From: a virus | Taxonomy: Duplodnaviria > Caudoviricetes | IMG/VR virus record: IMGVR_UViG_3300013426_000016 | Coordinates: 32,001 to 96,000 of that record | Direction: 5' to 3' (one strand) | Length of the DNA: 64,000 nucleotides | Shown: one piece after another, positions 199 through 46,558 of the stretch | How positions within the stretch are numbered: the first letter of the stretch is position 1 | How the letters are laid out: each line of letters starts with the position of its first letter | The notes under the pieces: generated by a model | Seen by the model: the letters and a program-made list of their open reading frames with translations, nothing else | The model's database searches: none | What the model was told of the DNA's origin: nothing | Translations under genes and position numbers: made by a program

Positions 199-513
199 AT
201 GAAAAAAGAGACTATAATTGGACTTTTTGTAGCTTCTATTCTTTGTATAAGTCTTGCTATATACTCAGTAATAATAGACGAAAAACAACATAGCTACCAA
301 CGTCAACAAATAGAACAAAGAGATGCATTTATACAAGAGTATTTAGATTCTCTTTATGTGCTTAAAGACGAGTTTGTTCTTACACCAAGTAATGAAAAAA
401 CAATTCATGCTTTAGATTCTCTTGGATTAGAGTTTGCCACTAAAACAAGTAAACTAAATTATTATAAGTACGCCCTCGATATAAATTATCTACAAGAAAA
501 ATTACACAAATAA
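199..513 (+). CDS. hypothetical protein with N-terminal TM/signal segment
   Basis: MKK followed by a hydrophobic stretch; TAATG overlap with the next gene. Confidence 0.7.
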   Translation: MKKETIIGLFVASILCISLAIYSVIIDEKQHSYQRQQIEQRDAFIQEYLDSLYVLKDEFVLTPSNEKTIHALDSLGLEFATKTSKLNYYKYALDINYLQEKLHK

Positions 514-6493: not shown

Positions 6494-6567
6494 GGACATT
6501 TAGTTTAATGGTTAAAAAACAAAGATCTTCAAAATCTTAGATAACTGTTCGATTCGGTTAATGTCCG
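6494..6567 (+). tRNA. opal suppressor tRNA, anticodon UCA (probably Trp)
   Basis: Acceptor stem GGACATT/AATGTCC; D arm GTTT/AAAC; anticodon stem AAGAT/ATCTT with loop CT-TCA-AA; T arm AACTG-TTCGATT-CGGTT; discriminator G; no encoded CCA. Confidence 0.9.
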
Positions 6568-6636
6568 CTTAATATTTATATATTATGATTAAAAACTTTA
6601 ATATTATTTATTCCTACAAGGAAAATTTATACAACA

Positions 6637-10975: not shown

Positions 10976-11340
10976 AAGAACGATTTTATTATGGCAGAGA
11001 GTATAAGCTAGCAAATATACCTTGCCTTATTTCTGACAGAGGAGAACTGCTTGCTACTGGCGAACCTCTACAAGTTAAGAGTCTTCCAAGGATTACTATT
11101 TGTGGCATTTGGGATACTAATACTAATATTATGTATTTTGGAGTTTCTAGATGTAGTGCAAGAGACCATTTTGATAAAAGAATTGGTAGAGATATTGCTT
11201 ATTCTCGTGCTCTAAATAAACCATTTAAAGTGGTTAAGATTCCTCCTACTTTGCATGTAAGTGATACTTTTATGTCTACTGCCAAGCTTATAGAGGAAGA
11301 AGTTATGAGTATGGTATATCCTATTAACCTTAATGGATAG
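10969..11340 (+). CDS. hypothetical phage protein
   Basis: G.SRCS..D.FDKRIGR.IA..RA motif typical of a small phage protein family. Confidence 0.7.
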   Translation: MLKERFYYGREYKLANIPCLISDRGELLATGEPLQVKSLPRITICGIWDTNTNIMYFGVSRCSARDHFDKRIGRDIAYSRALNKPFKVVKIPPTLHVSDTFMSTAKLIEEEVMSMVYPINLNG

Positions 11341-11785
11341 CTATACCATTTATTGTGATGGTTCTTACCAAGCTTCTATAGAATGTGGTGGCTGAAGTGC
11401 TATTATTATAAAAGACGATACTATTATAAAGAAACTTTATTGTGGTTGTAAACATACTACAAATAATAGAATGGAACTAAAGGGAGTTTTAGAAGCTTTA
11501 AAATATTTTAAAACTCCCTCTATTCTCACCATTTATTCAGATTCTCAGTATGTAGTTAATTCTATTAATGCAAAACAAGTATATAAATGATTTGAAGAGC
11601 ATGATTATTCTAAGAAAAACTTAGACTTGTGATTTGAGATCATTGATTTACTTGACTTTCATACAGTTAACTTTATATGAGTAAAGGGGCATAATAAAAA
11701 CAAATATAATGAGTTAGCTGATTTATTAGCAGTTCATGCCGCACAGTGTCTTAATTTAGAAGAAGATGTTCCAATTAGTATTTAA
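11333..11785 (+). CDS. rnhA: ribonuclease HI (code 4)
   Basis: YCDGS, GGW, TNNRMEL, YSDSQY, NLDLW, WVKGH, NELAD. All four Trp are TGA (11393, 11588, 11630, 11678). Missing from the ORF track. Confidence 0.95.
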
Positions 11786-12131
11786 AAAAGTAGGAAATCA
11801 TTGGTATTTAGATATTCCTCATGAAAATCCATCTGACTTAAAACTAGATAGAAGAATTGAGTTCCTATTAACAAAAGCAGATAAATATAACGATAAAATA
11901 GTTACTGTTTATTTGCATGAGTTAACAGATGTTATTATAGAAGAAGGTTTAATCCAGTTTCAGGAAAGTGATTTTCAGAGGTATTTCTTAACTAACGATG
12001 ACTTTCAAATGAAAATGTGGATAAATAATAGAAAATTTACTATTTCTAGTAGTTTATACACATTAATCGAGAATTATTATCACTTAGATTTACACTTAGT
12101 TGCTTATAGAATAAGTTTATATGGAATTTAA
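11766..12131 (+). CDS. hypothetical protein
   Basis: ORF in gene run; F.K....WYLDIP. Confidence 0.7.
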   Translation: MFQLVFKKVGNHWYLDIPHENPSDLKLDRRIEFLLTKADKYNDKIVTVYLHELTDVIIEEGLIQFQESDFQRYFLTNDDFQMKMWINNRKFTISSSLYTLIENYYHLDLHLVAYRISLYGI

Positions 12132-12276
12132 AAAAATTGATGAAGTAGAAGCTTCTATTAAGGAGAGTTATATTAAAATCCTTAAGGAAAGAATTAGTCT
12201 TATGAAACAGTCCATTGTTGCTATTGAGGACGCTTTAGATTATCTTATAGAAGATGCTACAAAAGAGAGTCATTAA
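12121..12276 (+). CDS. small hypothetical protein
   Basis: 51-aa ORF filling the gap and overlapping both neighbours. Confidence 0.5.
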   Translation: MEFKKIDEVEASIKESYIKILKERISLMKQSIVAIEDALDYLIEDATKESH

Positions 12277-12571
12277 AGCTAAAGTAATGGCAATTAGAAA
12301 GGACCTTTACTCCAAATATGTATTTCAGAATATTGATGAGGCAGAAAACAGTTTATATAGATATTTAACTGTTACAAGATGTCCAAATTGAAAAGAACCA
12401 GAAGATTTACGTGTGGGAGATGAAGGTTTTTTAGAATACGAAGATGTTAAAAAAGGAGATATTTATAAAGATAAAATAACAGGTGAAGATAAACAAATCC
12501 AGTATGATAACCTTTATTTTATGAACTTTGTAAAACAAATAAAAGATAATGTAAAAGAATATAGTTTTTAA
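12254..12571 (+). CDS. hypothetical protein (code 4)
   Basis: Open frame with TRCPN-TGA(W); ends TAA. Confidence 0.7.
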
Positions 12572-12590
12572 TATGAAAGATATAAAGAAG

Positions 12591-13424
12591 ATGACAGAAT
12601 TTGGAGAAACACTTAATACAGCACTTAACTCAGTTAATATGTATGTATGAAAGACATATAATGGTACAGAAGTAAAGCTTATAGAAATGACACCAAAAGC
12701 TCTACAAAAAGCTTATAATCATGTAAATGAAATGCTTTATAATAAGAGTAAACTTACACCAGGTAAGTACCAAGTAAAGAAGAATATACAGAATTATATG
12801 GCTAGTTGTAATGCAGAGTTGTTCATGCGTTATTTGCTTTACGAATGTAACATTGATTGTCTTAAAACAAATATCCAAATTATCGATTTTCTTAGAGAGA
12901 GTAAACGAGCTAATAATTTGAGTTCTACAGATTCAGTTACTACCGTATTTTCTAATGCACCGAGAGAATTTGAAACTGTCACCATTGGGCAACTTTTAGA
13001 TGCCTGTTTAGATAGATTGGGAGTATTTAATCGCAAAATGCTTACTGATAGTTTTATCCTTGCACAAGGTATTTGGCTAACAGATGCTGAAAAGAAAGAT
13101 CTTACGGAGTACGATGATAATGGAAACAAAAAACCATGAATTAATGTAATTAAGGAAAGACTTATGCTCCCAGTAGGAACTAAACTGAAACTTAATTCTC
13201 ATGGACTTTCTTACAAGGAATTTAGAGCTATTATACATCTTACAGAACTTCCAAAGTTCTCGAGCCTTCCAACAGATACTCTTCTTTTACTTAGAGACAA
13301 GATATTTGTACTTCTTGATTACGATACTGATTTCTTTATTGAGAAATGGTTGAAACTGAAATCACAAATAGAAGAAGTAGCTAAGGAAAGAGAAATTTCA
13401 CTATACTCTTCAGAACAAAAGTAA
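12591..13424 (+). CDS. hypothetical protein upstream of PolA (code 4)
   Basis: Joins track ORFs 12687-13139 and 13164-13424 in one frame through TGA; alternative start at 12573. Confidence 0.8.
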
Positions 13425-15448
13425 TGATTTTATATTTAAGTAATCAGACACCTTTAATAGAAGACAGTAGATATAGACTTACTACAGTCGAAGAGGTCTT
13501 AGATTTATTTAAAGATATAAAATTAGTACAATTTGACACTGAAACAGATGGATTAAATCCTCATTTAAAACAGTTAATGACTCTTCAGATAGGTTCTGAT
13601 AAAATAGATACTAGAGTGGTTATAGATTGTACTACTGTAGATATACACCTATTTAAAGAGTTCTTGGAAAGCAAAATGCTTGTTTGTCATAATGGTAAAT
13701 TTGATTTACAGTTTCTTTATAAACAAGGAATTGTTCCAAGAAAAATTTACGATACTATGATTGCAGAACAACTTTTATATTTAGGTTATAGACCTGGTTA
13801 TATAAGTTATAGTTTAAAAGCTTGTGCTGAACGATATCTTGGTATAGATATAGATAAAACTGTTAGAGGGCAAATACGTTGAAGAGGAATAGATGCAGAA
13901 GTAATTGTTTATGGAGCAGGAGATGTAACTTATTTAGAGCAAATAATGTGAAAACAGTATGCTGAAGCAAAACGACAAAATTGCCTTAAAGGCGTACAAA
14001 TAGAATGTGAAGCCGTTCCTGCCATTGCCTATTTAGAATATTGCGGTATTTGTCTTGATGCTAAGAAATGGGAAGAAAAAATTATTAAAAATAAAAAATT
14101 AGTTGTAGAGTATAAAGAGCAATTAAATAATTTTGTAGTTTCTTTAAATGAAGGAAATAATCCTTTTTGTTATTTAGATCCACAAGGAGATCTTTTTTCT
14201 GGTTTTTCTGATAAACCTTCTTGTATAATAGATTGAAATAGTCCAGCACAAGTAACAGCTTTGGCTAAGTATTTAGGTTTTGATACTTCCACTCAGGATA
14301 AGAAAACAGGAAAAGATAAAGACTCTGTAATGGAAAAAGCATTAAAACCTCAGAAGGGAATTAATGACGAATTTTTAAAATTATATTTTGCATATAAAGA
14401 AGCTGCAAAGGAAGTCTCTTCATTTGGATATGGGCATATAAATGCAGTAAATCCTCTTACTAATTGTATACATACTACTTGAAGACAAATAGGAACTGCC
14501 TCAGGAAGAATGTCCTGTGGTGAAGGTACACATCCAGATGAAGAACTCGCTCAGTATAAGCATTTACCTAAGGGTGCTTGTCCTAAAGTTAATTTACAAC
14601 AATTACCTGCGGACGAAGAAACTAGAAGTTGTTTTATCTCTCCTCCTGGGCATTTAATGGTAAGTGCAGATTTCAGCGCTGAGGAAAGTCGTTTGGCAGC
14701 AGAAATTTATAATGAACCTGTTCTACTTGAGGAGTTTTTACATGGAAGTGGAGATGTGCATAGTGTATTTGCAAAGACTTTTTTTGCTAAAGAGCTAGAA
14801 GGAGTTCCGGTAAAAGACATTAAAGAAAAGTATCCAGAGTGAAGAAAGTTAGCAAAAGGTCCAGAATTTGCACTTTCTTTTGGTGGAGGCACAGGCCCTA
14901 TAAAATCTATTGTTCAGTGTTCGGAAGAAAGAGCACAAGAAATTTATAATAATTACCAAAAAAACATGAAGGCAACTTGTGATTTTGCAAGAAAAGGAGC
15001 TTTATTTGTTAAATCTCATGGTTATATTATTATAGATCCATATTCGGGAAATCGAATGCACTGAGCAGATTGAAAGGACTGATATAAAGAAGAACAACTA
15101 ATGAAATATGGAGGATATAACTCATTTTCTAAAGAACAACAAAATGAGCATCGAAAAACAGGTGCCTATTGGGAAAGAATGGCTAGAAATGCAGTAACAC
15201 AAGGTTCTGGAGCTGTAATATTAAAAATAGCCTTAAAGAATTTATTTGACTATATAATAGATAATAATTATTTTAATAAAATTAAAATTGTTGCCGCAGT
15301 ACACGATGAAATTGTTTGTACTTTTCCAGAAGAAAATAAAGATTTTCCAAAAATATTAGAACAAACTATGGAAAATGCAGCAGCAGTTTTAGTACATAAA
15401 TTACCTATACCAGCTGAAGCTAGTGTAGGAAATCATTGAATACATTAA
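13424..15448 (+). CDS. polA: DNA polymerase family A with 3'-5' exonuclease (674 aa, code 4)
   Basis: FDTET, HNGKFD, IDWNSP, TASGRMS, VNLQQLP, ADFSAEESR, AKGPEF, NAVTQG, AVHDE. Nine in-frame TGA join four track ORFs; ends NHWIH-TAA. Confidence 0.95.
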
Positions 15449-16356
15449 TGAAAATAAATTTACACCTTTTAAGAACTCTTTATTTGATTAATAGAGGGTC
15501 TAAAACAGAAGCTCCTATGCTTAATTTTATTTTAAATTATTGTAGGAATCTGAAAAATGTAGACATAGAAATAGATAATGAAAAAAATCTGTTTATAACT
15601 AAGAATACTACAAATCCTCTTTATATGCCTTGTATCATAGCGCATATGGACACTGTATTTGATTATGATTTTGAAAGAGAGCTTGTACAGAAAGGAAATT
15701 TTATTACAGCCAGAGATGCTAAAACAAAGGCTCCTTGTGGTTTAATGGCAGATGATTCTAATGGTATTTATTGTGCTTTGAGATTACTCGATATTATGCC
15801 AAATATTAAAATCTGTTTTACAACACAAGAAGAAATAGGAGGAATTGGAGCTGTAGTAGCTACTGAAAACACAGAGTTCTTTAATAATGTAAATTTCTTT
15901 TTACAGGCAGACAGAAGAGGGAACTCTAACATAATCACTTTTACAAATGGAAGAAAAATTGTTTCAGATAAATTTGTAGAAGATATAACACCTATAATTA
16001 AAAGGTATAATTATTCTACTACAAATGGTATTTTTACCGATATAGGAGAAATTGCCTTTTGGTGTGGTATTTCTGGAATTAATATTTCTTGTGGGTATTA
16101 TAATGAGCATACGGTAAATGAAACTTGTAATACAGTTGAATTACATAATTGTCTTTATCTTATGAGAGAATTAATAAATACTCTTAAAGATAAAGAACCA
16201 TATAAAGTAGAATTTGCTCCAAATAAAGATCTTGATAGATCTCTGTTGAAGTATAATGACTATTTCTCATATAATACACATGATTATCTGTTTGAACCTC
16301 TTCCTTGTGACACCTGTTCAGATATGGACTGTATGAATTGTACCAAAACATTTTAA
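15448..16356 (+). CDS. M20/M28-family zinc peptidase
   Basis: AHMDTV, ADDSNG, QEEIGGIG, QADRRG, GYYNEH. Confidence 0.85.
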   Translation: MKINLHLLRTLYLINRGSKTEAPMLNFILNYCRNLKNVDIEIDNEKNLFITKNTTNPLYMPCIIAHMDTVFDYDFERELVQKGNFITARDAKTKAPCGLMADDSNGIYCALRLLDIMPNIKICFTTQEEIGGIGAVVATENTEFFNNVNFFLQADRRGNSNIITFTNGRKIVSDKFVEDITPIIKRYNYSTTNGIFTDIGEIAFWCGISGINISCGYYNEHTVNETCNTVELHNCLYLMRELINTLKDKEPYKVEFAPNKDLDRSLLKYNDYFSYNTHDYLFEPLPCDTCSDMDCMNCTKTF

Positions 16357-19300
16357 TGGACAGAACAGAAAGACAGAAATTAGGAATTAAACGCTGATTA
16401 GAAGCCGGAGCTATCGGAACGCTCGAATACGGTACGGGCGTAGGTATCGAAATAATAAAAGCCTAGCTTCTTAGGAATAAGAAGTTTTTATTGGGCAAAA
16501 TCGGTAAAACTCCAAAAGGACAATACCGAGGTAATTTAACTAGTAATATAGTTAAACACCGTAGAGCGTAGGGAATGAACCTAAAAATAGAATATAATTT
16601 CCCCAAGAGTGTCCAATACCCCAACTGAAATAAGTGGGTAAAAATGTACGCCGAGCTATAAGGTAACTTATAGAACTAAAGGATAAAAAACCTTTAGGAT
16701 AACATTACTGAAGACCCGCACTGCTATAATGGCTATACAGCTATTATTAAGAAAGAATCCAGAAGCTTCTATTTTAATCAGCGTTCCAACCAACTATCTG
16801 AAAAACCAATGAATAGAAAATCTCCAAAAGTTTAATATAGAAAATTGTGAAGTTGTAGTGATAAATACAATAGTTAGGCATACATATACTGTTGATTTGC
16901 TAATAGTCGATAAATAGGCTTTGTTGACTTTAAATTTACTTAATTGTCGGGAACTTCCTTAGAGTTCTTTCTACTAAATTATAATAGAAATATATATAAT
17001 GGTGAGAATAATTACCTCAGTATAGTAAAAAAGAAAGAAATTGGATAATCCGCAGCCAAGCTTCTAATTTAGAAGAAGGTTCATCGACTATCCCAAATGG
17101 GAGTACAGAATAAAATTCTGGAAACAGTAAAATTTATAATTTTTAATTAAAAAATGAAAAAACTTTATTATTTTTATACTTTATCTACAACAAAAGATAT
17201 ATCTAATATTAGATACGTAGGCGTTACTACTCGTACTTTAAAACAAAGATTAAGTGGGCATAAATATTGTGCTCTGCATAAAAATAAGAGATCTACCGCA
17301 GTTCATAAATGAATGTATTCGGAATATTTAGCTGGAAATGATATAATTATTTCTCAAATAGATTGTTGTGAAGAAGCTGTCTGAGAGGAAACAGAAAAGT
17401 ATTGAATTAAAGAATATCAAAACAAAGGGTTTAAATTATTAAATATCCAAAAAGGCGGCTCCGGAATAGTAACAAAAGAAATGAGAAATAAAGAAGGGTT
17501 GCAAAGAAGTATAGATGCTCATAAAATTCCAGTATATGCTTTAGATGATAATTTAAATGTAGTTTTAGAATTTTCTTCAGCTGTAGAAGCAATTCGATTT
17601 TTTGGAGGAAAAAGTAAAACTGCTATATCAAATGCTATTTCTAAAAACGTTAGTACTAAAAAATCATTTGGTTATTACTGAGTAAAACAAAATGATTATA
17701 AAAATGGAAATTTTTATGTTAATACCACTCCTAACTTTGAAAGTTTTAAAAAGAAAGTGTATCAGTTTGATAAGAACGGTACGTTTGTAAAAATGCATGA
17801 AAGTATAAAGAGTATAGAAAGGTATTATAATATACAAAATTCTTCTCCTTTAAGACACGCTATAAGAAAGAAAAGATTATATAAAAATTCATTTTGATCT
17901 TTTGAAAAAGAAGCCGACTTTGATTTAAATTCTCCATTTAGATTTTTTGAAATAGATAAAAATGAAAATATAATAGATAGGTATTTAAAAGTTGAAGATA
18001 TTTTGAAAAAATATAACTGCTCTTCTAATTTTTTATACAAAAAGGATAAAAATACTAAAGGTATATTACCCAATGGTAATAAAATTATAAAAAATAAAAA
18101 TTATAAATAAGATATAGTCAGACTTTATATGAAAGTATAAAGAGTTTTGGAAGCACATGGTGCGGCCGCTACAACCCTCCTTTCTATCTTTACTACAGTT
18201 AGTTATAGAATGCTTTTATGCTTAACTGCCACTATAGATAGATTAGATGGTAGAGGAGAAATCCTTAAACAATATGCACCAGTATGTGATCAGATAACCT
18301 TAACAGAAGCAACTAAAGAAGGTTGAGTAGCTCCAGTTAAAAACTATTTAGTTCTCTTAGATGTTGATTTACAGCCATATAAAGAATTAGATAGAAAATT
18401 TAATAGCTATTTTGCGTTCTTTGGCTTTCAGTTTGATACAGCTATGAACTGCTTGCAAAACTGACGCTTTCGCAACAAATATGCTAAAGAAATAGGTTCT
18501 GATCCAAAAACTGTTTTACAAATGAGTTCCTGTTGAATGAAGGCTTTACATGCAAGGAAATCCTTTATAGAAAACCATCCTAAGAAAATAGAAATTTGTA
18601 GAAGAATAATAGATGCAAAACCGAATACTAAAGGTATTTTATTTTGTCCTACTATAAAATTTGCAAAAGAAATTAAAAGGGGAAAGGTTTTATACTCTGC
18701 ACAAAAAACTTCTGAAAATAAAAAAATTATAGAAGAATTTAATGTTGCGGAGAAAGGATGAATCGCTTCGAGTCGTATGTTGAATGAAGGTAAACCAAAA
18801 AATCTAATTTAAAAGACATTTAATGAAAAAATTTTATTTATACACACTTAATGATCCTAGAACAAATGTTCCTAAATATGTGGGAATTACTTGTAATTTA
18901 CAACAAAGATTAATGTACCATCTAAAAGACACCGCAGATACAAAAAAGACACGTTGAATACATACTTTAAAAGAAGAAGGTATTACTCCTATAATCACTA
19001 AATTAGAAGAATCTGAAGATATTTATAAAATAATTAATCTAGAAATAGAGTATATTAAAAAGTATAAAGAAACTTTAGATTTAGCAAATACAACTATCGG
19101 TGGTGAATATTATGCAATTGGTACTCCAATAGATTGCTATGATTTACAAGGTAATTATATAGAAACTTTTTCATCTATGGTGGAAGCTCTGCCTGGGATA
19201 AAACACTATAGTGGTATTTCTGCTGTATGTAATCATAAACGAAATTATGCTTATGGTAAAATCTGAAGATATCAGGGAGAGCCTGTTACTAAAGAAGATT

Positions 19301-20219
19301 TAGAAAAAGTTAAAAAATCTCTTAATAAAGCTAAATATAAAGAAGTTTTAATAATAGATTTAGAAGGAAATATCTTAGATAGATTTCCTTCTTTAACTAA
19401 AGCCGGTCAAAGTAAAAAGTGGGGATCTATCAGTAATTTACGTTGTGCGATGAAAGGGCATAATGCCCATGGAAATTCTTTTCTTGCTAAGAATCATTTT
19501 ATTTGTTCTTCCATGGAAGATTTTTATGAAAAACGTAAAAAATATGAAGATTTTTTAAAATCTAAAATTGTTCTTCAATATACTTTAGATGATGAATTTA
19601 TAGCAGAATATCCTTCAGTAATGGAAGCAAGTCGTGTATTAAATAAAAGTTGGGCTTCAATTTTTAGATGTTGTAAAGGACAACAACAAGAAGCTCATGG
19701 TTTTAAATGGAAACTTAAGTTTTAAATATAAATACGCCGTGTAATAAAGTAATTTATTATAGTATAATACCTGGATATCGTTGAAAGCTAAACTTTTTAA
19801 AAGCATGCTAACTTAACGAGGCAAAGAGCTAAAGACTCAGCCCTAGAGACTAGATACAGGTACCCCTATTTTAGGGTGAAGATATAGTCCAGACTGTAAA
19901 CAATTTTTTGGAAAGCGAAAGCTTTTAGCAGTAGGTAGATATTCAAGGACTTACAACAGGAATCATAATGAATGTGAATAGTTCTAAAATTTCTAGTGTC
20001 CAAAAAACTGGTCGTTGTTGTAGATTTGCACCTAATAAAGTTGCAGAAATATTTACATTGGCCATTAAAGGAACTCAGGAAGTAAAATGGTTTAATAACA
20101 GTAGCACAACAGAGTATATAACTATAAATGACTCTACAGACTTAGACAAAGTATTAAATGGAGAAGAAATAAACTCTCGACAAAGAGAGTGAACAGAAGA
20201 TAAAACTTATAGATTTTAA
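16356..20219 (+). CDS. superfamily 2 (DExH) helicase split by three group I introns (~405 aa spliced, code 4)
   Basis: Exons 16356-16445, 16711-16911, 18150-18791 and 19935-20219 restore GTGVG|KT, IVD|EAH, LTAT, NEG|VDI and QKTGRCCR. Confidence 0.9.
16446..16710 (+). mobile_element. group I intron 1 (no ORF) in helicase Walker A
   Basis: P1 TAGGT/GCCTA with U-G at the 5' splice site; terminal G16710; removal restores G|KT. Confidence 0.85.
16912..18149 (+). mobile_element. group I intron 2 in helicase Walker B
   Basis: P1 AGTCGAT/GTTGACT; Q-like AATCCGCAGC, R-like TCGACTA and S-like AAGATATAGTC; terminal G. Confidence 0.9.
17154..18110 (+). CDS. intron-encoded GIY-YIG homing endonuclease with NUMOD1-like repeats (code 4)
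   Basis: YFYTL...IRYVGVT...QRLSGH...E..W...LLN; repeats such as VYQFDKNGTFV. Confidence 0.85.
18792..19934 (+). mobile_element. group I intron 3 in helicase motif V
   Basis: Core follows the ORF (CTAGAGACTA ... GAAGATATAGTCC); IGS TACGCC near 19733; removal restores EG|VD. Confidence 0.85.
18823..19725 (+). CDS. intron-encoded GIY-YIG homing endonuclease with NUMOD1 repeats (code 4)
   Basis: FYLYTL...PKYVGIT...QRLMYH; VLQYTLDDEFIAEYPSVMEA...GFKW. Confidence 0.85.
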
Positions 20220-20239
20220 AATGACTTAAATAGTAATTT

Positions 20240-20833
20240 TTGGAACTAAATACGATTTTAAATTTAATGTCAGCTTACAATCTCACAGCAGATGAGCTGC
20301 TTTTAATTTATATAACCCTCTTAGCAAGAGACGAAGAGGGTAATGCTACTTATTTTTCACAGTGATTTAATAATGGAGGAAGAGAAAGACTTAGAGACTT
20401 ATTTTCTTCTTTAAAGGAAAAAGGAGTAATCCTTAAATCTTATAATCCAGAATCTTATATACCTAATGATATAGAGTTTAATAAAAATTTTTTAAAAAAG
20501 TGATATAAATTTTCTGGAGAGATGGGCCAAGAATTACTTAATGCTTATCCTTCATTTTTAAATATACAGGGAAAATATGTTCCACTGAAAGATGTTTCTA
20601 AAAGATTTGCTTCTTTAGATGACTTTTTTAATTTTTATGCTACACAAATAGGTAGTAATCCGGAAAAACATAAAGAAGTAATGGGAATTCTTAATTGAGC
20701 TAAAGAAAATAATTTACTTAATTTTGGAATTTTAAATTTTGTAATTTCTAATCAGTGGAATAATTTGAAAGAACTTAGAGATAATCCAGAAATGGTGCCT
20801 ATATACCAAGATAGTATTTTAACAGATGACTAA
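20240..20833 (+). CDS. hypothetical replication-associated protein (code 4)
   Basis: 197-codon frame with three TGA, directly upstream of DnaB; TTG start (alternative ATG 20267). Confidence 0.7.
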
Positions 20834-21932
20834 TGTAGATTTACTTTTTAAGAAAATTGATGAAGGTAGAGCTGGAAAAAATATTGGATTGAGTACAGGT
20901 ATACCTAAATTAGATAAATATACAGGAGGAATCCAAAAAGGTGTTTATACACTTATTTTTGGACTTTCGGGTTCCGGAAAGACTTCCGTAGCTTTATATA
21001 ATTATATTTATCGCCCATTAAAAGATAATCCCGAAAAAGATCTTAAATATATTTATTTTTCTTTGGAATTAGGAGCAGATGTTTTGCTCAGCAAACTCCT
21101 CTGTTTATGGGTTTATGAGGAATTTGGAGTAATAATACCTTACTCCTCTATAATGTCTTGAAAAGAGCCTTTAAATGACGAATTTTACAATTATATATGT
21201 AAGGGAAGAAAATGACTAGAATCTATTTCTGAAAAACTTATAATAATAGATACTAATCTTTCTTCAAAAAACTTTTATTCTAAAATAATGACATTTTTAG
21301 AAGAATGAGGGACATTTAAAGAATCTGAAGATGGAAGAAGAAAAATATATATTAAAAACAATCCAGAGCAGTTTGTAACAGTTGTTCTGGATCATATAGG
21401 TCTATTACTTTGTTGTGATGGACATACTAAAAAACAGGAAATAGATTTAGTTTCCCAGTATGCAGTATCTTTAAGAGAGAGATGTGGTGTTTCTTTTGTA
21501 ATTTTACAACAAGAAAATAGAAATTCTGCATCCTCCGATAAAATTAAAATGGATATGACAGACTGTAGTCTAGACGGCCTTAAAGATAGTGGCAATACTG
21601 GAAATGATGCAGAATTATGTATAGGAGTCTATAATCCTATAAAATTTAAATTAAAAACTAAATCTGGTTATCCAATAATTTCAGAAGACAACGGTTTTGG
21701 TTTTACGGGCTTTAGAAATCGAATTAGATTTTTGCAGATCATAAAGAACCGTACAGGCCCTTCTGATAAGTCTATTCCAGTAAACTTTTTTGGAGAAATC
21801 GGTCTCTTCAGAGAATTACCAAAACCAGAAGAAATTAAAAATCCATTGGACTATATGTCCTTAAACCCAAATAAACAAGAGATCGTAGAACCAGACAGTT
21901 CTACAAAAAAATTTATTTCATATGAATTTTAA
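20826..21932 (+). CDS. dnaB: DnaB-like replicative helicase (code 4)
   Basis: LSTGIPKLD, GLSGSGKT, YFSLE, VLDHIGL, LQQENR, LKDSG...DA, IIKNRTG. Confidence 0.9.
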
Positions 21933-21935
21933 AAA

Positions 21936-24900
21936 ATGGCTATAACATTACCTACGACAAAAATTCCTGCTACTACTCAAGATCCTAAATACTTAATCCT
22001 TTTTGGATTACCAAAGGTTGGAAAAACAACAATTCTTTCTACTCTTGAAGGAAATTTAATTTTGGATTTGTAATAAAGTCCCTATAATCAGTAATGATTA
22101 TAGCAAACCCCTTGAATTTTTGGAAAAACTGTTATATTTATTCCCATTTTCAAAAATATTTTTTTGTATATTTGTAAATGGTTTTAAGTATGTTTAACAG
22201 TTAATCAAAAGCTAAGTATGAATGATATAGAAAAATTATGTTTATATAAAGGAAAAGAAGTAGAAACTAAAATTGAAGATGTTGATTATCAATCTAATAA
22301 AGAATTTCAATCTGATTTTTACAATGTTATAAAAAGCATTTCGCAAAAAGTAAATGGCAAATATATGTATTTTTACATAGTAGAGTGTAAAAAATGTGGA
22401 TCTCTAAAAAAGATATATAGGTCAGATTGAAAAAACCAAAAACTTAGAATGTGCAAAAGGTGCCTCTCTATTACAAAAAGAGAATCTCACATTGGTTATG
22501 AAAATAAAACATATAAAGTTGTTGGTATTAATTTTGAGAGAAGTAATCAAAATAAAAGACGTGTTTATTATGATGTTGTATGTAAAAATTGTGGCGCAAA
22601 ACTAGTGTTACGTTGAGATGCAATTTATTCTGACACTAAAAATACGCGCTGTTCAAAGTGCTGTGGAAATAATATTATTCCATCAGAAAATGCCGTATAT
22701 AATGTTTTATACAACTCATATAAACAAAACGCAATTATGCGTAATTTTGGTTTTGAATTAACAAGACAAGAATTTAATAATTTAATTTTACAAGATTGTT
22801 TTTATTGCGGAAATCCTCCTCACGAAGTACAGTCATTAAAACGTTATAATAAAACAGGAGTTCCTATTTTTACAAATGGAATAGATAGAAAAAATTCAAA
22901 TTCTGGATATACTATTGAAAATTGTGTCCCATGTTGTGAAATGTGCAATAGAATGAAATTAAATTATGATATAAATACTTTTTATAAACATATATATAAA
23001 ATATATCATCATAAAAGTTTAACGACTATCTCGCAAGAGAGTACATCACAAGCTAATGGTGATGGAAGTGGGGGGTCTCCAGAAATGGAGAATGATATAG
23101 TCTAATCTGCATGGCGACATGCAGCTGCCAAAAGCGCATGTAATGTTGCGAATTACATGGAATATAAATGTTTGAAAACGGTTCTGATTATGTTTCTGCA
23201 CTTAAAATGAAAGTTAATTCTATTAAAGAACTTAATGAAATCTGTACAGCTATAAAAGAGGCCAAATGTCCATACAAATATATTACAATAGATACTATTA
23301 CAGCAGTAGAGGAAATGGCTAAACCTCTAGCAATTAAACTCTACCAAGATTCCCCAATGTTTTCTGAGAAATATGCAAATGTTAAAGATCCCGCAGCTCT
23401 TCCTAATGGTTCGGGATTTTCATTTTGGAGATCCTCAATAGAACTCATTATTAACAAAATTGCTTCTTGTGCCCCAAATATTATAATTTGTGGACACGTT
23501 AAAGATGCTGCACTTTCAGAAAGCACAAATGGTAATTTAAAAACTCTCGATTTAACAGGTAAAATTTTTGCATAAAATAAAAAGTATTTTTATATTTGTA
23601 TTTATAAAATAATCGAATATGGAAAATACTATTAGTACACTTTATTTAGAAGGTTTGTCAAGTAGACAAATTTCAGATTTTTTAAAAATAGATAAAAAAG
23701 AAGTAGATTTATATATAATAGATAATTATTTTACAGAAAAGAAAAATTCTAAACAAAAAATAACAAAAGAGATTTTAAAGGAAGCTTTAAGTTTAAAATA
23801 TAAAGGAGAAACTTTTGAAAATATAGCTAAAAAATATAACCTTTCAAGTAGTCTTTTTACACAGAAATTTAAAAAACTTAGAATAGATTATAATTCAAGA
23901 AAATATGATTATTCTTTATTAAATAAAGAAACTGTTACTGACATAGTTAAAAAATTTAATGATGGGTATACCGTTAACGATTTAATTAAAATCTACGGTT
24001 TTAATAAAACTGTTTTGGCAAACGTTATTAATGAAAACGGAGGAAATACAACTCCATGTTCTTTTTGTTCTACTATATTTGATAATATAGATACTGAAGA
24101 AAAGGCATACTGGTTAGGGTTTTTATATGCAGATGGTTGTGTTGGAAGTAGAGATAATTCTCTAGAATTATCTTTACAACTTTTAGATGCAAAACATTTG
24201 TATAAGTTTAAAAGTTTTTTAAATGCAGAAAACAAAATTGCTTTAGACTTTAAAATAGGTACATTTGGAAGGTGTAGATTTTCTATTTCTAATAAACATT
24301 TTAAAGAAACTTTAATTTCTTTAGGTTGTTTTCCGCAAAAGTCTTTAAGGTTAGAATTTCCAAAAGAAAACCAAGTTCCAACAGAATTTTTAATCCCTTT
24401 TATTAGAGGTTATTTTGATGGAGATGGTTGTTTATCCCACACTTTTAGTGATACTATTAAATCTCGTTTCACAGTTAAAACTAGTTTTATTGGAACAAAA
24501 GAGTTTATATTTTCTTTACTGAAGTTCCTCAAAACACAAGAAATTTTTGGATCTATTTATAAAAATAAAACTTATAAAGATAATACTTTAGAAGTAAAAT
24601 TCAATAAAACTAATTCTGTTAAATTACTAAATCTTATATATAATGATGCTTCTATTTATTTAGATCGAAAATTTGAAAAATACAAATTTTATGCTAAGCA
24701 TCATAATTTTGCCGTCTCTGTAAGTGATTACAGAGATTATGAACGAACAATATCGGAGAAGGCTAAACACTGAATAAATAAATATTTTAATATAGATTTT
24801 GATACAGTGCACGCTAACACCGAGATAACTAAAAAACGTAACGGGTTTTTAGCATCGTAACGCATAGAGGTTGAAACTATATATTTTATAGAATAAAATA

Positions 24901-25226
24901 CCTCCACGAGTGTTCGTTATCTTTTTAAAAAGATAAATATATATGCTGATCTTATGAGAAATTATAAGAATTAAGAGATAAAAAACTCTTAAGATAACAA
25001 AATGAAAACTTCGAGAATTTTAGCTGCAAAGTCAGACGCAATCGGTTTCGTGCACCGAAATGAAAATAGTGATCTTTGTATACAGTTTGGAACTGATGGA
25101 GAAGTACTTACTGGAGCAAGACCCCAACATCTCGCAAATAAAGATATTATAGTAGCAGAACGTAAAGAGGATGGTTCTTTTGTTCCACATTGGGAAAGAA
25201 TCTATCCATCTCTTAATAGCAAGTAA
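21936..25226 (+). CDS. AAA-family phage NTPase (AAA_24/Sak4-like) split by two introns (~247 aa spliced)
   Basis: Exons 21936-22067, 23171-23560 and 25005-25226: GLPKVGKT, LILD|FENG, ITIDT, ICGH, LDLTG|KTSR..DAIG. Confidence 0.85.
22068..23170 (+). mobile_element. group I intron 4
   Basis: P1 GGAT/GTCC; R TTTAACGACTA, S AATGATATAGTC; terminal G23170. Confidence 0.9.
22218..23105 (+). CDS. intron-encoded HNH-type endonuclease with Zn ribbons (code 4)
   Basis: CFYCG...GIDRKNSNSGYTIENCVPCCEMCNRMK; two track ORFs joined by TGA; C-terminus overlaps the intron core. Confidence 0.85.
23561..25004 (+). mobile_element. group I intron 5
   Basis: Removal restores TG|KT; IGS TTTGCC at about 24708-24713; core resembles intron 1; terminal G25004. 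Confidence 0.85.
23619..24860 (+). CDS. intron-encoded LAGLIDADG homing endonuclease with N-terminal HTH repeats
   Basis: AYWLGFLYADG and FIRGYFDGDG; TGA 24771 reads through to TAA 24860. Confidence 0.9.
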
Positions 25227-25582
25227 TGGAAGCAACTATTAAAGTGCAGAATAATAAATTAGTTTTAAACAAAGAGGCTACACAACTTCTTGGTGTTAAA
25301 GCTAATGATCGAATTGCAGTAAATTATTGATCACAGAATGCAGAAGAGACTTTTCCAGTAATTGGAAGAGCCTCTTTATTTGCTTGTGACGGAAACAGAT
25401 TAACGAAATCTAACACGGTTTCCTATAGAGGAGCACAAAGAGACATTTTGCTCCAATATGGAAATTATTTTAAACTAGAACCATTTAAACATTATTTTAA
25501 AATGGTTAAAATAGAGGAACCCGAAATTACCTCTGAAGAAACATTTGAAGAAGAAGAAGAATATCTTAACAATTTAATTTAA
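25226..25582 (+). CDS. hypothetical protein (code 4)
   Basis: TAATG-coupled, one TGA, acidic C-terminus. Confidence 0.7.
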
Positions 25583-25589
25583 AACAAGT

Positions 25590-26258
25590 ATGAATTTTAA
25601 TTTTGATGAGGCCCTTAAGGCAAAAGAGACAGGTAAATTTCTTTCATTTGGTATAAAGGACGCTACTTTTAAGGGCGTTGAATATGGCCAGCAGACAACT
25701 CAGAGTGGTGAGGATCTTGCTTATATGGCTATGAAGTTTGATATTGATGGTTATGGAGACTATGAGGCTAAGATTTTTGAGCCTCGTTCTAATGAGCGCC
25801 AAGAAATGCAGTGGGGACTTACACCTTCTCCTCTCGATCATTTTCTTATTATAGTACGAGAGTTGCTTGAGGCAATTGCTCCAACAGCTTTTGAAGAGCT
25901 TAATGAAGGCAAAAAGAAGCTTTCTGGTAGCTTTAAACAAGTAGTAGCTGCGGTTGCTAGTATGACTGCTCCGGGCATTGGAACAAAGACACAAATTAAG
26001 CTTGTTCCTAATAGTAAGGGTTACGCAAATCTTCCTGCATTTCCGGCTCGTCTTACTAAAGATGGACAGCTTGGAATTTCCACTCGTATTATTGGAAAGG
26101 ATCTTACTCTTACAGCACGTGAGCTTAAGCAAATTGAGACAGCACAGGCAGCTAAGCCAACGCAGATGTCTACTTCTACCACTACAGATACAGTAAACTC
26201 TATGCTTGATGATCTTAACGGTTCGGATTCTTCTTCAGATTCAGATTTACCGTTCTAA
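25590..26258 (+). CDS. putative single-stranded DNA-binding protein
   Basis: Acidic tail ending SDLPF; lies between the AAA ATPase and primase. Confidence 0.7.
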   Translation: MNFNFDEALKAKETGKFLSFGIKDATFKGVEYGQQTTQSGEDLAYMAMKFDIDGYGDYEAKIFEPRSNERQEMQWGLTPSPLDHFLIIVRELLEAIAPTAFEELNEGKKKLSGSFKQVVAAVASMTAPGIGTKTQIKLVPNSKGYANLPAFPARLTKDGQLGISTRIIGKDLTLTARELKQIETAQAAKPTQMSTSTTTDTVNSMLDDLNGSDSSSDSDLPF

Positions 26259-26261
26259 GAG

Positions 26262-27266
26262 ATGGAAATAACTTTTCCAGTTATTCTTTCTAAAGAGCTT
26301 ATTTATAATAAAGTTCGTGAAGAGGAAATCTTGGAGTATTATTTAGGTATTCCAGTAAAAAAAGGTTTATTTAAAAGTCCATTAAGAAATGATAATTCTC
26401 CCACTTGTGCTTTTTATAGAGCGCGTAATGGAAGGATTATTTTTAAGGACTTTTCTGGAGCATTTTCTGGAGATGCTATATCTGTAGTTATGGAGAAATT
26501 CCAATGCAGTTATATGAAAGCTCTTCAGATTATAGCGAATGACTTTGGGATTGTAAAAAATGAAAATCTTAAAGTAAATAAACCTAAAATGGAATACTCA
26601 GGTAGTATATTGGAAGAAAATAAAACCAGTATTATACAAGTAGAAATACGAGATTTCCAAGATTACGAACTCGCTTGATGGAAAACATATGGGATTACAG
26701 AAAAGACTCTAAAACACTTTAGGGTCTTTTCTTGTAAGAACATATGATTAAATGGTACTTTATTTCATTTAGAAACAAGTAAGCAAAAGATTTTTGGTTA
26801 TTTTGGAGGAACAAAAGATGGAGTAGAAAATTGAAAAATCTACTTTCCTGGGAAAAAGAAATATAAATTTATTTCTAATTGGAAAGCAACTAAAATACAA
26901 GGAGCCGCCCAATTACCAAAAGAAGGTGGAGAGTATTTAGTAATTACAAAATCTCTTAAAGATTGTATGACTTTATATGAATTTGGAATTACAGCAATCG
27001 CTCCTAACTCAGAAAATTTATTTGTTACTCCTGCTCAGTATGAGAAATTAAAAACTAAATTTAAAAATATTTTAATTGTTTATGATAATGATTTAGCTGG
27101 TATCCACGGATTAAATAAGATTAGAAAAGAATTTCCTGGAACAAAAGTAGCTTTTATACCAAGAAAGTATGAAGCAAAAGATATTTCTGATTTCTATAAA
27201 AAATACGGAAGAGAAGAAACTCAGAAATTGATAACCACAGCTAAAAATTTTTATTTTAATGGCTAA
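26262..27266 (+). CDS. DNA primase (TOPRIM; code 4)
   Basis: SPLRND..P, FKDF, VITKSLKD, APNSE, YDNDLAG, KDISD; three TGA. Confidence 0.9.
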
Positions 27267-27648
27267 AAAACGATCCGCAAACTATTGTCGTACAAAAGGA
27301 AATACTTTTGAGCGTAAAATAGTAAAAGAGCTGAAAGAACTTGGATTTAACGTAGGTACTACAAGAAATAACTCTAGAACAGAAGATGCAGATAAGGTAG
27401 ATATATATGATGTAGATAATACACTACCTTGTAAGATACAATTAAAAGCCACACAACAAACTCCACAATATTTTAAAATACGTTCAGAATCTTCTGTTAA
27501 AGCAGAAGACTTTGTAGTACTTTGATCGAAACAAGAAAAAAGAACTACAAATATAGTCTCAGTTGGAGAAGTTGTAATTATGGATAAACAATTATTTTAT
27601 AAACTTATAAAACCTTATGCAAATGGAAAAAGTACAAGTGACATTTAA
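27259..27648 (+). CDS. Holliday junction resolvase-like PD-(D/E)XK nuclease (code 4)
   Basis: RTKGNTFER.I..EL..LGF, VDI, IQLK; extends past TGA 27523. Confidence 0.75.
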
Positions 27649-27827: not shown

Positions 27828-29048
27828 ATGTTACCATTACTTTCAGATAGTTTAAAAAATCTTCTTTTGTCTATTTCTGAAGAAAATGACAGTGATATAA
27901 TTAATGATCTTCTTGTTGCTAATGAGTTAGTCGAAATAGCAAGAAGTTTTAATGATCCAAATTTCGATAAAAGTTTTTCTAAAAACATTTCACAACTAAT
28001 TAATGATAATTACAGAATGCTCACTTTTCGTCAAAATGAATTATTAATTTCATTTTTGCCTAAAGGAAAAGATCCTATTTATACAAGTGAAAATAAATGG
28101 GGAAGAACAAATCGTCAATTTGGTAAACCTGCACGAATAATCCAAAATCTTTTAGTAAAGAAATATTCTTGCAAAGAATTCGAGGATTTTCAGAATTTTT
28201 TTAAGGCTAAAGTATCTGAAATAGATTTTCGTATTGTAGAAGGATCTGATATTACAAAGTATTATAACAAAGAGAATTACTACCAAGAAACAGGAACTTT
28301 AGGAAATAGTTGCATGCGTTATAGTACTTGTGAGTCTTTCTTTACTATTTATGAGGATTATGCAAAAATGCTTGTAGCCTTTAAAGATGATAAAGTTGCA
28401 GGGCGTGCTCTTATATGGGAAATAAATGGAGAAACATATATGGATAGAGTATATACTTATGTAGATTATTTGTATAATGCTTTTATCATGTATGCAGAAG
28501 ATCATCATTGGTACCATAGAGAAGATAATTCTCTTCTTAGCGATGGGGAGGATCAAAATTTTGTAGGACCTAAAGATGATTATGAAAGATCTTTTTATCC
28601 AAGTTTGGAATTAAAAATTAATCCTGGATATGAAATATTTCCTTATATGGATAGTTTTAGATACTATTGTCGAGATACAAATACTCTTTGTACCTCTTGT
28701 TGTGATGATTGTATATATCTTTCTAATACAGACGGCCGTATTGGGGAATCTTATTATTGTGCAGATTGTGGAAGAGAATTTATTAGTAACGAATATCCGG
28801 AAGAGTTACATTACTCAGAATATGCCGATAGAGATCTTTGTAATGATTGTTGTTGGTATTGTGAATATTTAAGGGACTATATTCCAGATACTGATCCTGT
28901 GGTGGAAATGAAATGTGGTGATATTACTGCATGGGATGTTCCAGTATCTTATGTAGAAGACCCAGACGAGTATGAGGAAATTAATGATATTTATTATAAA
29001 TTATCTGCCTATACAGAAGAAGAACTCGAAGCTATAAGAAATGAATAA
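27828..29048 (+). CDS. conserved phage protein with Cys-rich C-terminus
   Basis: NSCMRY, GRALIW, YMDRVY, FPYMDSF and several CxxC motifs. Confidence 0.75.
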   Translation: MLPLLSDSLKNLLLSISEENDSDIINDLLVANELVEIARSFNDPNFDKSFSKNISQLINDNYRMLTFRQNELLISFLPKGKDPIYTSENKWGRTNRQFGKPARIIQNLLVKKYSCKEFEDFQNFFKAKVSEIDFRIVEGSDITKYYNKENYYQETGTLGNSCMRYSTCESFFTIYEDYAKMLVAFKDDKVAGRALIWEINGETYMDRVYTYVDYLYNAFIMYAEDHHWYHREDNSLLSDGEDQNFVGPKDDYERSFYPSLELKINPGYEIFPYMDSFRYYCRDTNTLCTSCCDDCIYLSNTDGRIGESYYCADCGREFISNEYPEELHYSEYADRDLCNDCCWYCEYLRDYIPDTDPVVEMKCGDITAWDVPVSYVEDPDEYEEINDIYYKLSAYTEEELEAIRNE

Positions 29049-29808
29049 AATACGTTATGATTTACTCCCTGTAGAAGGAATTACAGAAGTAAACAAAGTG
29101 CTTACAAATAAATTAAAGGAGCACGATAAAAATGAATGGAAGTACGGAATTTCCTGGACTGAAGTTTTATCCTCTCTTAAGAAACATTTAACAGAATTTG
29201 AATTGGGAAATGACTATACAGAAGAAGGTTTGCTTCAGATAGCAGAGGTTGCAGCAAATGCTCTTATCCTTGCAGAATATTACTCTATATATCCACAAGG
29301 TGATGATAGACAAATAACTCCTCTTACTAAAAATATAGTAGCAGTTGATTTAGATGACTGTATATTTGACTTTACCGGGAGTTATGAAAAAAGATTTGGT
29401 GTACAACTATCTGATTATTGGAATGGAGACTATAATATGTCTGATAATTTAAAGGAACTTCAGAAAGATAAAGATTTTTGGGTAAATATGCCTGTCATTT
29501 CTGAAGTTCCTTTTGAGGTAGATTATTATGTAACAGCTCGTAGTATACCTGTGGAATGGACACAAGAGGCTATACAAAAGAATAATTTACCAAAAGCTCC
29601 TATATACAGTTTACCTTGGAATGTATCTAAAATAGATACTTTAAAGAAACTAGGAGCTACTATCATGATCGATGATAAATTTAGTACTTTTAAAGAATGT
29701 AAAGACAACGGAATTTTTTGCTATTTAGTAACTACAAGAGCAAATAAACGTTATAATGTCGGACACCATAGGATTAACAGTGTTTCCGAACTCACAAAGA
29801 TAAAATAA
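29041..29808 (+). CDS. dATP/dGTP diphosphohydrolase-like (DUF5664) domain fused to a HAD 5'(3')-nucleotidase
   Basis: N-terminal RYDLLP...VLT...WKYGISW...SLKKHL...GL...NAL; C-terminal VDLDDC...VTAR...K...MIDD. Confidence 0.75.
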   Translation: MNKIRYDLLPVEGITEVNKVLTNKLKEHDKNEWKYGISWTEVLSSLKKHLTEFELGNDYTEEGLLQIAEVAANALILAEYYSIYPQGDDRQITPLTKNIVAVDLDDCIFDFTGSYEKRFGVQLSDYWNGDYNMSDNLKELQKDKDFWVNMPVISEVPFEVDYYVTARSIPVEWTQEAIQKNNLPKAPIYSLPWNVSKIDTLKKLGATIMIDDKFSTFKECKDNGIFCYLVTTRANKRYNVGHHRINSVSELTKIK

Positions 29809-30845
29809 TGCAAATTAAACTTTCAGAATTTAACATTTTTCCAATTGCAGACTCTGCAAGAAGGGCAGATATTAGTGATGAAATATATTTTGGAGAAAAA
29901 TATAAACACTATATTAGCAATTCCAAACTTGCCTCTATATGCCCTTCACAAGGTGGTAGTATGGAAAAGTATTATGGTCCAGCAGAACGTATAGAGACTT
30001 CTAGTCTATCTTTAGGAACAGTTATACATACCCAAACTCTTCAGCCAGGAGAGTTTGAGTTAGCTCCTAAAATAGATAAACCAACAGCAAAGCTGGGACT
30101 AGCTTGCGATAAATATGTTAAGCATATAAAGAAAGGTCTCTCTAAAGAAGAAGCTGCGAGAAAAGCTTGTTTAGAAGCTAGTTATTATGTTAACCAAATA
30201 GAAAAGTATTTTCCAGCGGTAATTGAGAAAGGGGATATATTTTATGAAAAAGTAAAAGATTATGCAGATAATGTATTTACTTTGGATAATAAAGCTTGGG
30301 ATACAGCAATGATTTGTATAGAGAATCTAAAGAAAGATAGACTTATACAACAGAAACTCCACCCTCTTTCCGATTTTTTAGAAGAACTTCCTTCTTTTAA
30401 TGAAGACACTTTATTTCTTGATTTTCTTGTTACATATAAAGATAGATACGTAAAGCTCTCTTTTAAAGGAAAACTCGATAATTGGACTATTGACACAGAA
30501 AATAAAATCTTAACCTTAAATGATTTAAAGACTACTGGACATTGTGTTACTTGGTTTACAAATAAAGAATACGGTTCCTTCTATAAATATCACTATGCAA
30601 GACAATTGGCTCTTTATAAGATTATGTTAGAGGAACTTTGTAAGAATGAGTACGGATATACTACAAAACAGTGGCAATTTAAAACAAATATTCTTGCCGT
30701 AGAAACAGTACTAGAAAATAACACAAGATGCATTCCTATAACAAATACAGCACTTAAAGAAGGAAAAGCTGAATTATATGATTGCATAAAAAGAGTGGCT
30801 TATTACGAAATGTTTGGCCACAAGAAAGAAGTAAAATTTGTATAG
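29808..30845 (+). CDS. PD-(D/E)XK exonuclease (RecE/ExoVIII, DUF3799-like)
   Basis: ISNSKL, LGTVIH, KGKLD, DLKTT, YHYARQLALY. Confidence 0.85.
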   Translation: MQIKLSEFNIFPIADSARRADISDEIYFGEKYKHYISNSKLASICPSQGGSMEKYYGPAERIETSSLSLGTVIHTQTLQPGEFELAPKIDKPTAKLGLACDKYVKHIKKGLSKEEAARKACLEASYYVNQIEKYFPAVIEKGDIFYEKVKDYADNVFTLDNKAWDTAMICIENLKKDRLIQQKLHPLSDFLEELPSFNEDTLFLDFLVTYKDRYVKLSFKGKLDNWTIDTENKILTLNDLKTTGHCVTWFTNKEYGSFYKYHYARQLALYKIMLEELCKNEYGYTTKQWQFKTNILAVETVLENNTRCIPITNTALKEGKAELYDCIKRVAYYEMFGHKKEVKFV

Positions 30846-45635: not shown

Positions 45636-45837
45636 TTATAGTCTTTATGGTATAGAATTAGACTTGCCAACTAATGCTACAAGAGAGCAACAAATAAATG
45701 CTCTCTTGACTGCTTTTGGTGGACCACAACTCTTACTTGATCATTTTATAAGGCATTTTCGAGTTATAGAAGATTTTATACCAGACATAGAACTTACAGC
45801 TGATGTGAAAGAAACTCTCCCAGAAACTACCGAATAA
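45619..45837 (+). CDS. hypothetical protein
   Basis: ORF in gene run. Confidence 0.55.
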   Translation: MKVLINYSLYGIELDLPTNATREQQINALLTAFGGPQLLLDHFIRHFRVIEDFIPDIELTADVKETLPETTE

Positions 45838-46513: not shown

Positions 46514-46558
46514 AAATAGGCCTCTAGCAGTTTTCACTGTTAGGGGCCTTATTTTTTT
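46513..46558. terminator. bidirectional intrinsic terminator between convergent gene blocks
   Basis: A-run, AGGCCTCTAGCAGT/ACTGTTAGGGGCCT stem, then T-run. Confidence 0.85.

Follow-up and report, generated by a model that had tools for sequence, protein, structure and literature searches.

Crass-like phages of the Zeta group with reassignment of TGA from stop to tryptophan were described by Yutin et al. 2021, who stated that the reassigned codons lie mostly in late genes, without a per-gene analysis; PolB and the intron open reading frames (ORFs) of OLWB01000021 were shown there with multiple TGAs (Fig. 7c; PMC7886860). Borges et al. treated recoding as a timer of late genes and lysis and termed its use in replication genes 'variable' (10.1101/2021.08.26.457843). 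Transcripts for replication and for nucleotide metabolism fall into a single middle class in crAss001 (PMC8375218). Here we report the use of in-frame TGA in a 64,000-nt stretch of DNA (the window), positions 32001-96000 of the virus record IMGVR_UViG_3300013426_000016 (203,856 bp), which carries the replication genes of a Zeta-group crAss-like phage. That the replisome of this phage depends on UGA suppression is well supported.

The phage resembles the Zeta phages of Yutin et al. in genome size, intron and intein load, suppressor tRNA and exchange between PolA and PolB (PMC7886860). Unlike in that account, the whole replisome core is recoded here and the adjacent metabolic genes are not. As in the phages of Borges et al., the code has to change before any gene with in-frame stops can be expressed, stops are enriched or depleted by gene family, and a homing endonuclease is recoded. 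Their crAss-like and Agate examples have replication in the standard code, whereas here the boundary falls within the middle genes, and TGA is depleted relative to a neutral level instead of enriched. Opal recoding is likewise found in the Zeta phage Lera (Babkin et al. 2025), which shares the order of the replication genes and has a major capsid gene without TGA (PMC12386605). Unlike here, both helicases, primase, resolvase, PolI, RNase HI and dNMP kinase of Lera are free of suppressed stops in its Table S1; the text of that report nonetheless mentions a disrupted helicase ORF and DNA-processing enzymes (PMC12386605). The suppressor tRNA at the 5' end of the region with recoded stops is shared with the code-block phages found with Mgcod (Pfennig et al., 10.1101/2022.06.29.495998), but in those the code follows the strand and replication is unrecoded, while here neighbouring genes of one strand differ in code. 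No paper on a conserved partition between replisome and metabolic genes was found in a literature search of incomplete coverage.

The recoded block and its contents are as follows, with TGA:TGG counts in brackets.

11333..11785, + strand: RNase H, first gene of the recoded block (4:0; 48:7 over 13 genomes)
11766..12131, + strand: 121-aa ORF of no assigned function, inside the block, TGA-free (0:27 over 13 genomes)
12254..13424, + strand: two conserved ORFs of no assigned function, 105 aa (1:0) and 283 aa (2:2)
13424..15448, + strand: family A DNA polymerase, PolA (9:2, the highest TGA number of any gene in the genome)
15436..16356, + strand: M42-peptidase-like ORF, TGA-free (0:1)
16356..20219, + strand: SF2 helicase (7:1) in four exons, found by tblastn with intact relatives, with approximate borders 16356-16448, 16717-16914, 18150-18791 and 19941-20219
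17154-18110 and 18823-19725: GIY-YIG endonucleases in introns of the SF2 helicase (5:0 and 2:3)
20240..20833, + strand: 197-aa ORF (3:1), DnaD-like by synteny with phage Lera alone, no profile match
20826..21932, + strand: DnaB-like replicative helicase (3:1)
21936..25226, + strand: AAA_24 ATPase in three exons, TGA-free (0:2)
22218-23105 and 23619-24860: AAA_24 intron endonucleases, HNH-type (2:0) and LAGLIDADG (1:1)
25590..26258, + strand: probable SSB, TGA-free (0:1), with capsid-like codon usage; synteny with Lera, no profile match
26262..27266, + strand: DnaG-type primase (3:2)
27259..27648, + strand: RusA-like resolvase, last gene of the recoded block (1:0)

TGA:TGG is 34:15 in the block, against 2:67 upstream of it, 9:78 downstream and 78:270 in the late arm; the intron homing endonucleases, at 18:7, are as TGA-rich as the block. 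Homogeneity across the genome is rejected (chi-square 292, where permutations average 139; p=5e-5). With homing endonucleases excluded, a scan statistic selects 10598-27648 (p≤0.001 under both codon shuffles and gene-order shuffles), and the block differs from the late arm at p=1e-10. A previous reading of the same DNA (the sequence-only reading) had proposed, from hand counts, that TGA is concentrated in the replication block. All its counts proved exact (RNase H, PolA, the spliced SF2 helicase at 7:1, DnaB, primase, phosphoesterase, RNA ligase, PNK, the NrdD extein at 1:9 and a virion RNA polymerase at 2:18), and the unbiased scan recovers the same block. The block is a mosaic in which the SSB-like, AAA_24 and M42-peptidase-like genes and the 121-aa ORF lack TGA. 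Late genes are recoded too: 33 of the 52 that contain Trp carry TGA, and in relatives the late-arm TGA share counted by ORF is 0.58. Composition was rejected as the cause, because G+C content at third codon positions (0.16-0.25) and the share of A at the third positions of Lys, Glu and Gln codons (0.72-0.83) are similar in every class. A role of TGA as terminator near the end of genes was rejected for PolA (codon 672) and NrdG (codon 159), as relatives have W at both positions; the 137-aa ORF at 10598 might be such a case.

TGA and TGG form a two-fold purine box like those of Lys, Glu and Gln, and the share of A in these was taken as the neutral expectation. Block Trp codons are 69% TGA, against 74% A-ending codons for Lys, Glu and Gln (p=0.42). 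Every other class except the homing endonucleases lies far below its own baseline; thus the block is not enriched and the remainder is depleted. In 12 relatives, replisome TGA is 0.72 against 0.77 expected, and no genome is significantly above expectation. Trp sites of replication genes differ between genome pairs as Lys, Glu and Gln sites do (50 of 164 and 519 of 1634, summed), while those of the TGA-free class are frozen as TGG (5 of 146 against 475 of 1441). Silent sites are near saturation between genomes, so this pair test is not independent of the equilibrium test. An independent but small test among about 20 close strains found 4 of 29 replication Trp sites polymorphic, against 56 of 361 for Lys, Glu and Gln. 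Replisome TGAs have no 5' bias (p=0.43), and the dispersion of Trp sites, at 1.66 with controls at 0.9-1.4, does not settle the matter. In this genome and the 12 relatives, TGA was found neither above the neutral level nor at fixed sites, as a selected switch would have it. Positive selection for TGA in the replisome is not supported; selection acts against TGA outside it. A high share of recoded stops need not imply selection for stops, which bears on other recoded phages.

TGA share declines with a codon-bias proxy (rho=-0.50; rho=-0.61 for non-metabolic genes), which accounts for capsid and SSB and not for the metabolic class. In relatives, a replisome term adds nothing after terms for codon bias and the TGA-free metabolic class (log-likelihood -1271.8 to -1271.3). 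UGA followed by U terminates strongly. TGAs of late genes shun a following pyrimidine (0.47-0.53 against 0.67-0.68, p=2e-8, with a flat control), much more strongly than those of the replisome, which suggests ongoing competition with the host release factor.

The comparison set comprised 12 near-complete TGA-recoded genomes, one amber-recoded genome (G015) and one standard-code genome (G016). Genomes of the clade average about 40% protein identity. The early-arm partition is kept in all 12 relatives: the replisome core, 30:7 here, is 297:117, the nucleotide-supply and RNA-repair genes are 18:381, and SSB, AAA_24, M42 and the 121-aa ORF together are 1:53. Early-arm gene ranks correlate at 0.85 between the relatives and this genome, and shorter, closer loci concur. 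The helicases, primase and RNase H of the diverged relatives carry TGA as well, and at least one TGA occurs in 88 of 91 replisome gene-genome pairs. The PolB of G002 is TGA-free (0:6), and the lone Trp codon of RusA is TGG in G006 and four close loci. Polymerases within the block are 53:14, against 19:29 in the downstream position; this difference probably reflects one relocation event. The heterogeneity survived a control for composition and is not explained by gene age, and the early-arm partition is conserved.

The further claim, that TGA peaks in replication instead of late genes, holds for this genome only (p=2e-11). In 11 of 12 relatives the contrast between replisome and late genes has p>0.1, and in the remaining one, G008, p=0.009, uncorrected. 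Late genes of the relatives are about as recoded as the replisome (0.63-0.69 against 0.72), and by ORF the TGA share is 0.58 in both block and late arm there, against 0.70 and 0.22 here. Virion RNA polymerase (RNAP) genes are 422:247 in relatives and 8:59 here, and terminase, portal and tail genes 408:181 and 14:32; the late-arm share is 0.19 here and 0.48-0.84 in relatives. By terminase, portal and capsid, this genome is nested within the TGA clade as sister to G003, whose late arm has 0.80, and low late TGA is therefore a lineage-specific loss. Between the two, 24 sites are TGG here and TGA in G003, and one is the reverse. At the same positions, close relatives have 20:15, 17:10 and 17:6, against 8:25, 6:16 and 3:14 here. 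Through this loss the lineage may be withdrawing in part from recoding. Throughout, the major structural genes lack TGA (11:145). Trees of the fast-evolving RNAP genes, which are unreliable and anchored on the sequence of this genome, were not relied upon.

The suppressor gene is located on the early strand.

6494..6568, + strand: tRNA with UCA anticodon, opal suppressor with Trp-type loop and G73 discriminator (ARAGORN; Rfam RF00005, 64 bits)

This gene lies 4.8 kb upstream of the recoded block. In all nine genomes in which a tRNA(UCA) was detected, RNase H follows it on the same strand at a distance of 3-14 kb. Two lineages provide a contrast. The replisome of the amber-recoded G015 contains 60 CAA/CAG codons and not a single TAG, TAG is abundant in its late genes, and its amber tRNA precedes the terminase on the late strand. 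In Lera, four unlabelled tRNAs head the late strand. With their stop-free replisomes, G015 and Lera indicate that recoding of the replisome is no automatic result of low expression and accompanies a suppressor on the early arm. Such sister lineages with the late-only pattern are a natural comparison, and the position of the suppressor may predict which genes are recoded.

ARAGORN found just three tRNAs in this genome. UCA tRNAs of 93-94 nt with an extra hairpin at the variable-arm position occur in G001 (72236-72329, - strand), G005 (59870-59962, + strand), G008 (80187-80280, - strand) and G009 (162826-162919, - strand). The loop of the extra hairpin reads TCCAAA in all four, like the anticodon loop of ordinary tRNA-Trp; the stems differ yet pair. 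The tRNA(UCA) of this genome is without it. The extra hairpin may be a decoy for the host tryptophanyl-tRNA synthetase (TrpRS). A literature search limited to titles gave nothing evident on a two-armed suppressor tRNA. Amber (CUA) tRNAs are present in G005 (41394-41466), G014 (16354-16434) and G016 (1831-1981), genomes without evident TAG recoding; Lera was likewise reported with an amber tRNA but without evident TAG recoding (PMC12386605).

With 9 TGAs in PolA and 7 in the SF2 helicase, the replisome could not be made on a standard-code host without efficient readthrough of UGA. By established principles of translation, the full-length yield would scale as e^n for n UGAs read with efficiency e, which for PolA gives 0.2% at e=0.5 and 63% at e=0.95. 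Of the proposal in the sequence-only reading that suppressors gate replication, the dependence on readthrough stands, being conserved in the clade and accompanied by an upstream tRNA; selection of TGA in the replisome, which is at its neutral level, does not. We consider it somewhat probable, as the best overall explanation, that the dependence of replication on a preceding code change is a by-product of relaxed selection and not of selection for UGA. Judging by gene order, with the suppressor gene ahead of the replisome genes on the early/middle arm, suppression has probably set in by the time these are translated. Where UGA is cheap, AT-biased mutation would push Trp codons to about 75% TGA, close to the levels seen in the replisome core, homing endonucleases and low-copy late genes. 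Elsewhere TGA is avoided and purifying selection maintains TGG, presumably because the products are required ahead of suppression or independently of it (nucleotide supply, host-DNA nuclease, RNA repair and GroEL) or, for capsid and SSB, because very abundant proteins avoid UGA at all times. TGA-free genes would then be translated before or without suppression, and the replisome and late genes afterwards. The peak in this genome would arise because this lineage alone purged most late TGAs, probably as its single suppressor tRNA falls short of late demand. The partition would order the proteins post-transcriptionally, given that replication and nucleotide metabolism share one transcript class in crAss001. 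In published models the phage code changes after replication and ahead of the late genes; in this widespread clade it must precede replication, and the code boundary runs gene by gene inside one co-directional cluster.

Several observations weigh against the by-product explanation. With 4-9 Trp codons per gene a gate comes free, so neutrality at single sites is compatible with a selected gate; selection on it would come into play only as a gene approached zero TGA. TGA-free genes are interleaved with the replisome and also follow it, and gene order alone is insufficient. The codon-bias proxy barely separates TGA-free genes from the replisome (-0.148 against -0.178), and the retention of nine PolA TGAs in a lineage with purged late genes is odd. 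No tRNA(UCA) was found by ARAGORN and a hairpin search in 4 of 13 recoded genomes (G002, G010, G012 and G013), all near-complete and heavily recoded. The standard code of the host is itself presumed.

The principal alternative is a selected licensing switch, without dormancy, in which UGAs are kept so that DNA synthesis awaits host takeover and remodelling of the nucleotide pool, and many UGAs form a steep threshold. We regard this as possible but doubtful. In its clade-wide form, which is proposed only tentatively, a selected checkpoint within the middle genes would leave nucleotide-pool, host-DNA-degrading and RNA-repair enzymes in the host code, and the multi-UGA helicases, primase and RNase H would switch on steeply once the suppressor is efficient. 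Such selection would fit the conservation of the gene-by-gene partition and its ranks at about 40% identity, the near-universal presence of TGA in replisome genes, its retention here while the late arm was purged, and the stop-free replisomes of the sister lineages. TGA, however, is never significantly over the neutral level, it shows neither 5' bias nor a clear excess of fixed sites, the PolB of G002 has none, the homing endonucleases and dNMP kinase behave as the replisome does, and the late genes of relatives are equally recoded. Since genes with several Trp codons are gated without selection on single sites, the sequence is compatible with an adaptive delay and with a non-adaptive one; the retained PolA TGAs and the higher TGA of in-block polymerases keep an adaptive reading alive.

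That TGA share tracks protein demand alone, with suppression good but imperfect from the outset and no stage at which the replisome is blocked, appears improbable. Capsid, an Ig-domain protein and SSB are TGA-free as this would require, the codon-bias correlation among non-metabolic genes is in its favour, and the late-gene rank order here agrees with that of relatives (rho=0.70). The metabolic class nevertheless is almost devoid of TGA, although virion RNAP and terminase, with similar codon-bias scores, have TGA shares of 0.5-0.7; adding a class term after the proxy gains 245 log units, crude as that proxy is. A carrier or dormant state, suggested by the sequence-only reading, in which the genome waits unreplicated for the suppressor to build up, is very unlikely. 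A carrier-like state was hypothesised for crAss001 (PMC8375218), and a review leaves the question open (PMC10136315); the crAss001 data, however, are silent on recoding, no connection between the tRNA and a signal for dormancy is visible in the sequence, the GC-rich flanks of the record belong to another phage and not to a host chromosome, and no evidence for such a state was found in the sequence. Recent acquisition of the TGA-free genes, or of this late arm, from standard-code donors was the other explanation offered; it is largely refuted and we give it hardly any credence. Zeta phages do swap polymerases and modules (PMC7886860), and the RNAP trees are no guide. But dGTP diphosphohydrolase, PDDEXK, PNK and RNA ligase are old, with orthologues clade-wide and in both the standard-code and the amber-code outgroup; change at their other silent sites is close to saturation, yet their Trp codons remain TGG; the terminase, portal and capsid of this genome fall within the TGA clade; and close relatives are richer in TGA at the same positions.

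The AT-rich crAss-like genome has about 157 kb and is bounded by two 888-bp repeats. Coding coverage rises from 75% to 91% once TGA is counted as sense. The phage belongs to a clade of the Zeta group that reads UGA as Trp via a phage tRNA(UCA). Its terminase, primase and polymerase are related to those of crAss-like and Zeta genomes, and the polymerase matches crAss-like phages. A primase search gave many gut and rumen phage contigs of 160-180 kb, including OLWB01000021 (60% identity). For the terminase, a single-sequence search was without match and an alignment-based search succeeded. Genome size is within the Zeta range of 145-192 kb, and the many introns and inteins of that group are represented by the split helicase, AAA_24 and NrdD genes. 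Giant virion RNAP genes are represented by three late-arm ORFs of 1548-3017 aa, two of them with DxDxD motifs; they are identified by a D-Y-D-I-D motif and synteny, with no match in the PDB. Other genes were identified from Pfam and PHROGs profiles. In-frame TGA occurs at conserved Trp positions of essential genes. At about 110 aligned TGA positions, W is the commonest residue in standard-code and amber-code relatives (53), followed by F (14) and Y (10). No phage release factor, TrpRS or class Ib synthetase was found in this genome.

The motif TAnnTTTG and scarcity of Shine-Dalgarno sites mark Bacteroidota. The motif precedes the same late gene in 15 of 15 genomes, and Shine-Dalgarno sites are scarce (6 of 140). 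The host is probably a member of the Bacteroidota with the standard code; indirect pointers to that code are the motif, the few Shine-Dalgarno sites, the avoidance of TGA and the bias in the base after it. A sigma70 scan for promoters separating the gene classes remained at chance level, and no conserved TAnnTTTG lies ahead of early-arm genes.

The repeats are direct, 96% identical, and located at 24866-25753 and 182053-182940 of the record. The flanks outside them (1-24865 and 182941-203856, both outside the window) have about 50% GC and encode the terminase and DnaB of another phage, for which reason a prophage in a host chromosome was rejected. The record is most likely a chimeric assembly joined through the shared repeat; the flanks may alternatively reflect genuine recombination between two phages.

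The other features of the window are listed below.

513..1271, + strand: calcineurin-like phosphoesterase, TGA-free (0:5; 0:43 over 8 genomes)
27828..30845, + strand: TGA-free run adjoining the block, with a 406-aa protein (0:5), dATP/dGTP diphosphohydrolase (0:6; 1:71 over 12 genomes) and PDDEXK nuclease (0:4)
31921..37449, + strand: NrdD with an intein and two introns (extein 1:9, intein 0:7)
41296-42678, + strand: RNA ligase, TGA-free (0:6)
43630-44523, + strand: PNK, TGA-free (0:7)
44772-45635, + strand: ThyX, TGA-free (0:3)
45803..46513, + strand: dNMP kinase, outside the block (2:1), TGA-rich across the clade (34:10)
46557..64000, - strand: three giant virion RNAP/cargo genes (3:22, 2:18 and 3:19), of which that at 51181-60234 is 2:18 and the third continues beyond the window end

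In relatives, NrdD and NrdG are intermediate (34:60). The NrdD intein (33127-34179), unlike the intron-encoded endonucleases, is TGA-free; this is expected, since intein and host gene are translated in a single reading frame. The 406-aa protein (27828-29048), which adjoins the dGTP diphosphohydrolase, is Trp-rich and strongly kept TGA-free (3:65 over 8 genomes); a function search gave only unnamed viral clusters. TAnnTTTG motifs occur at about 22150 and 23580, just upstream of two intron endonuclease ORFs, and at about 30875, in the gap after PDDEXK, where TTTG stands 19 bases upstream. These three sites are possible promoters for the host RNAP.

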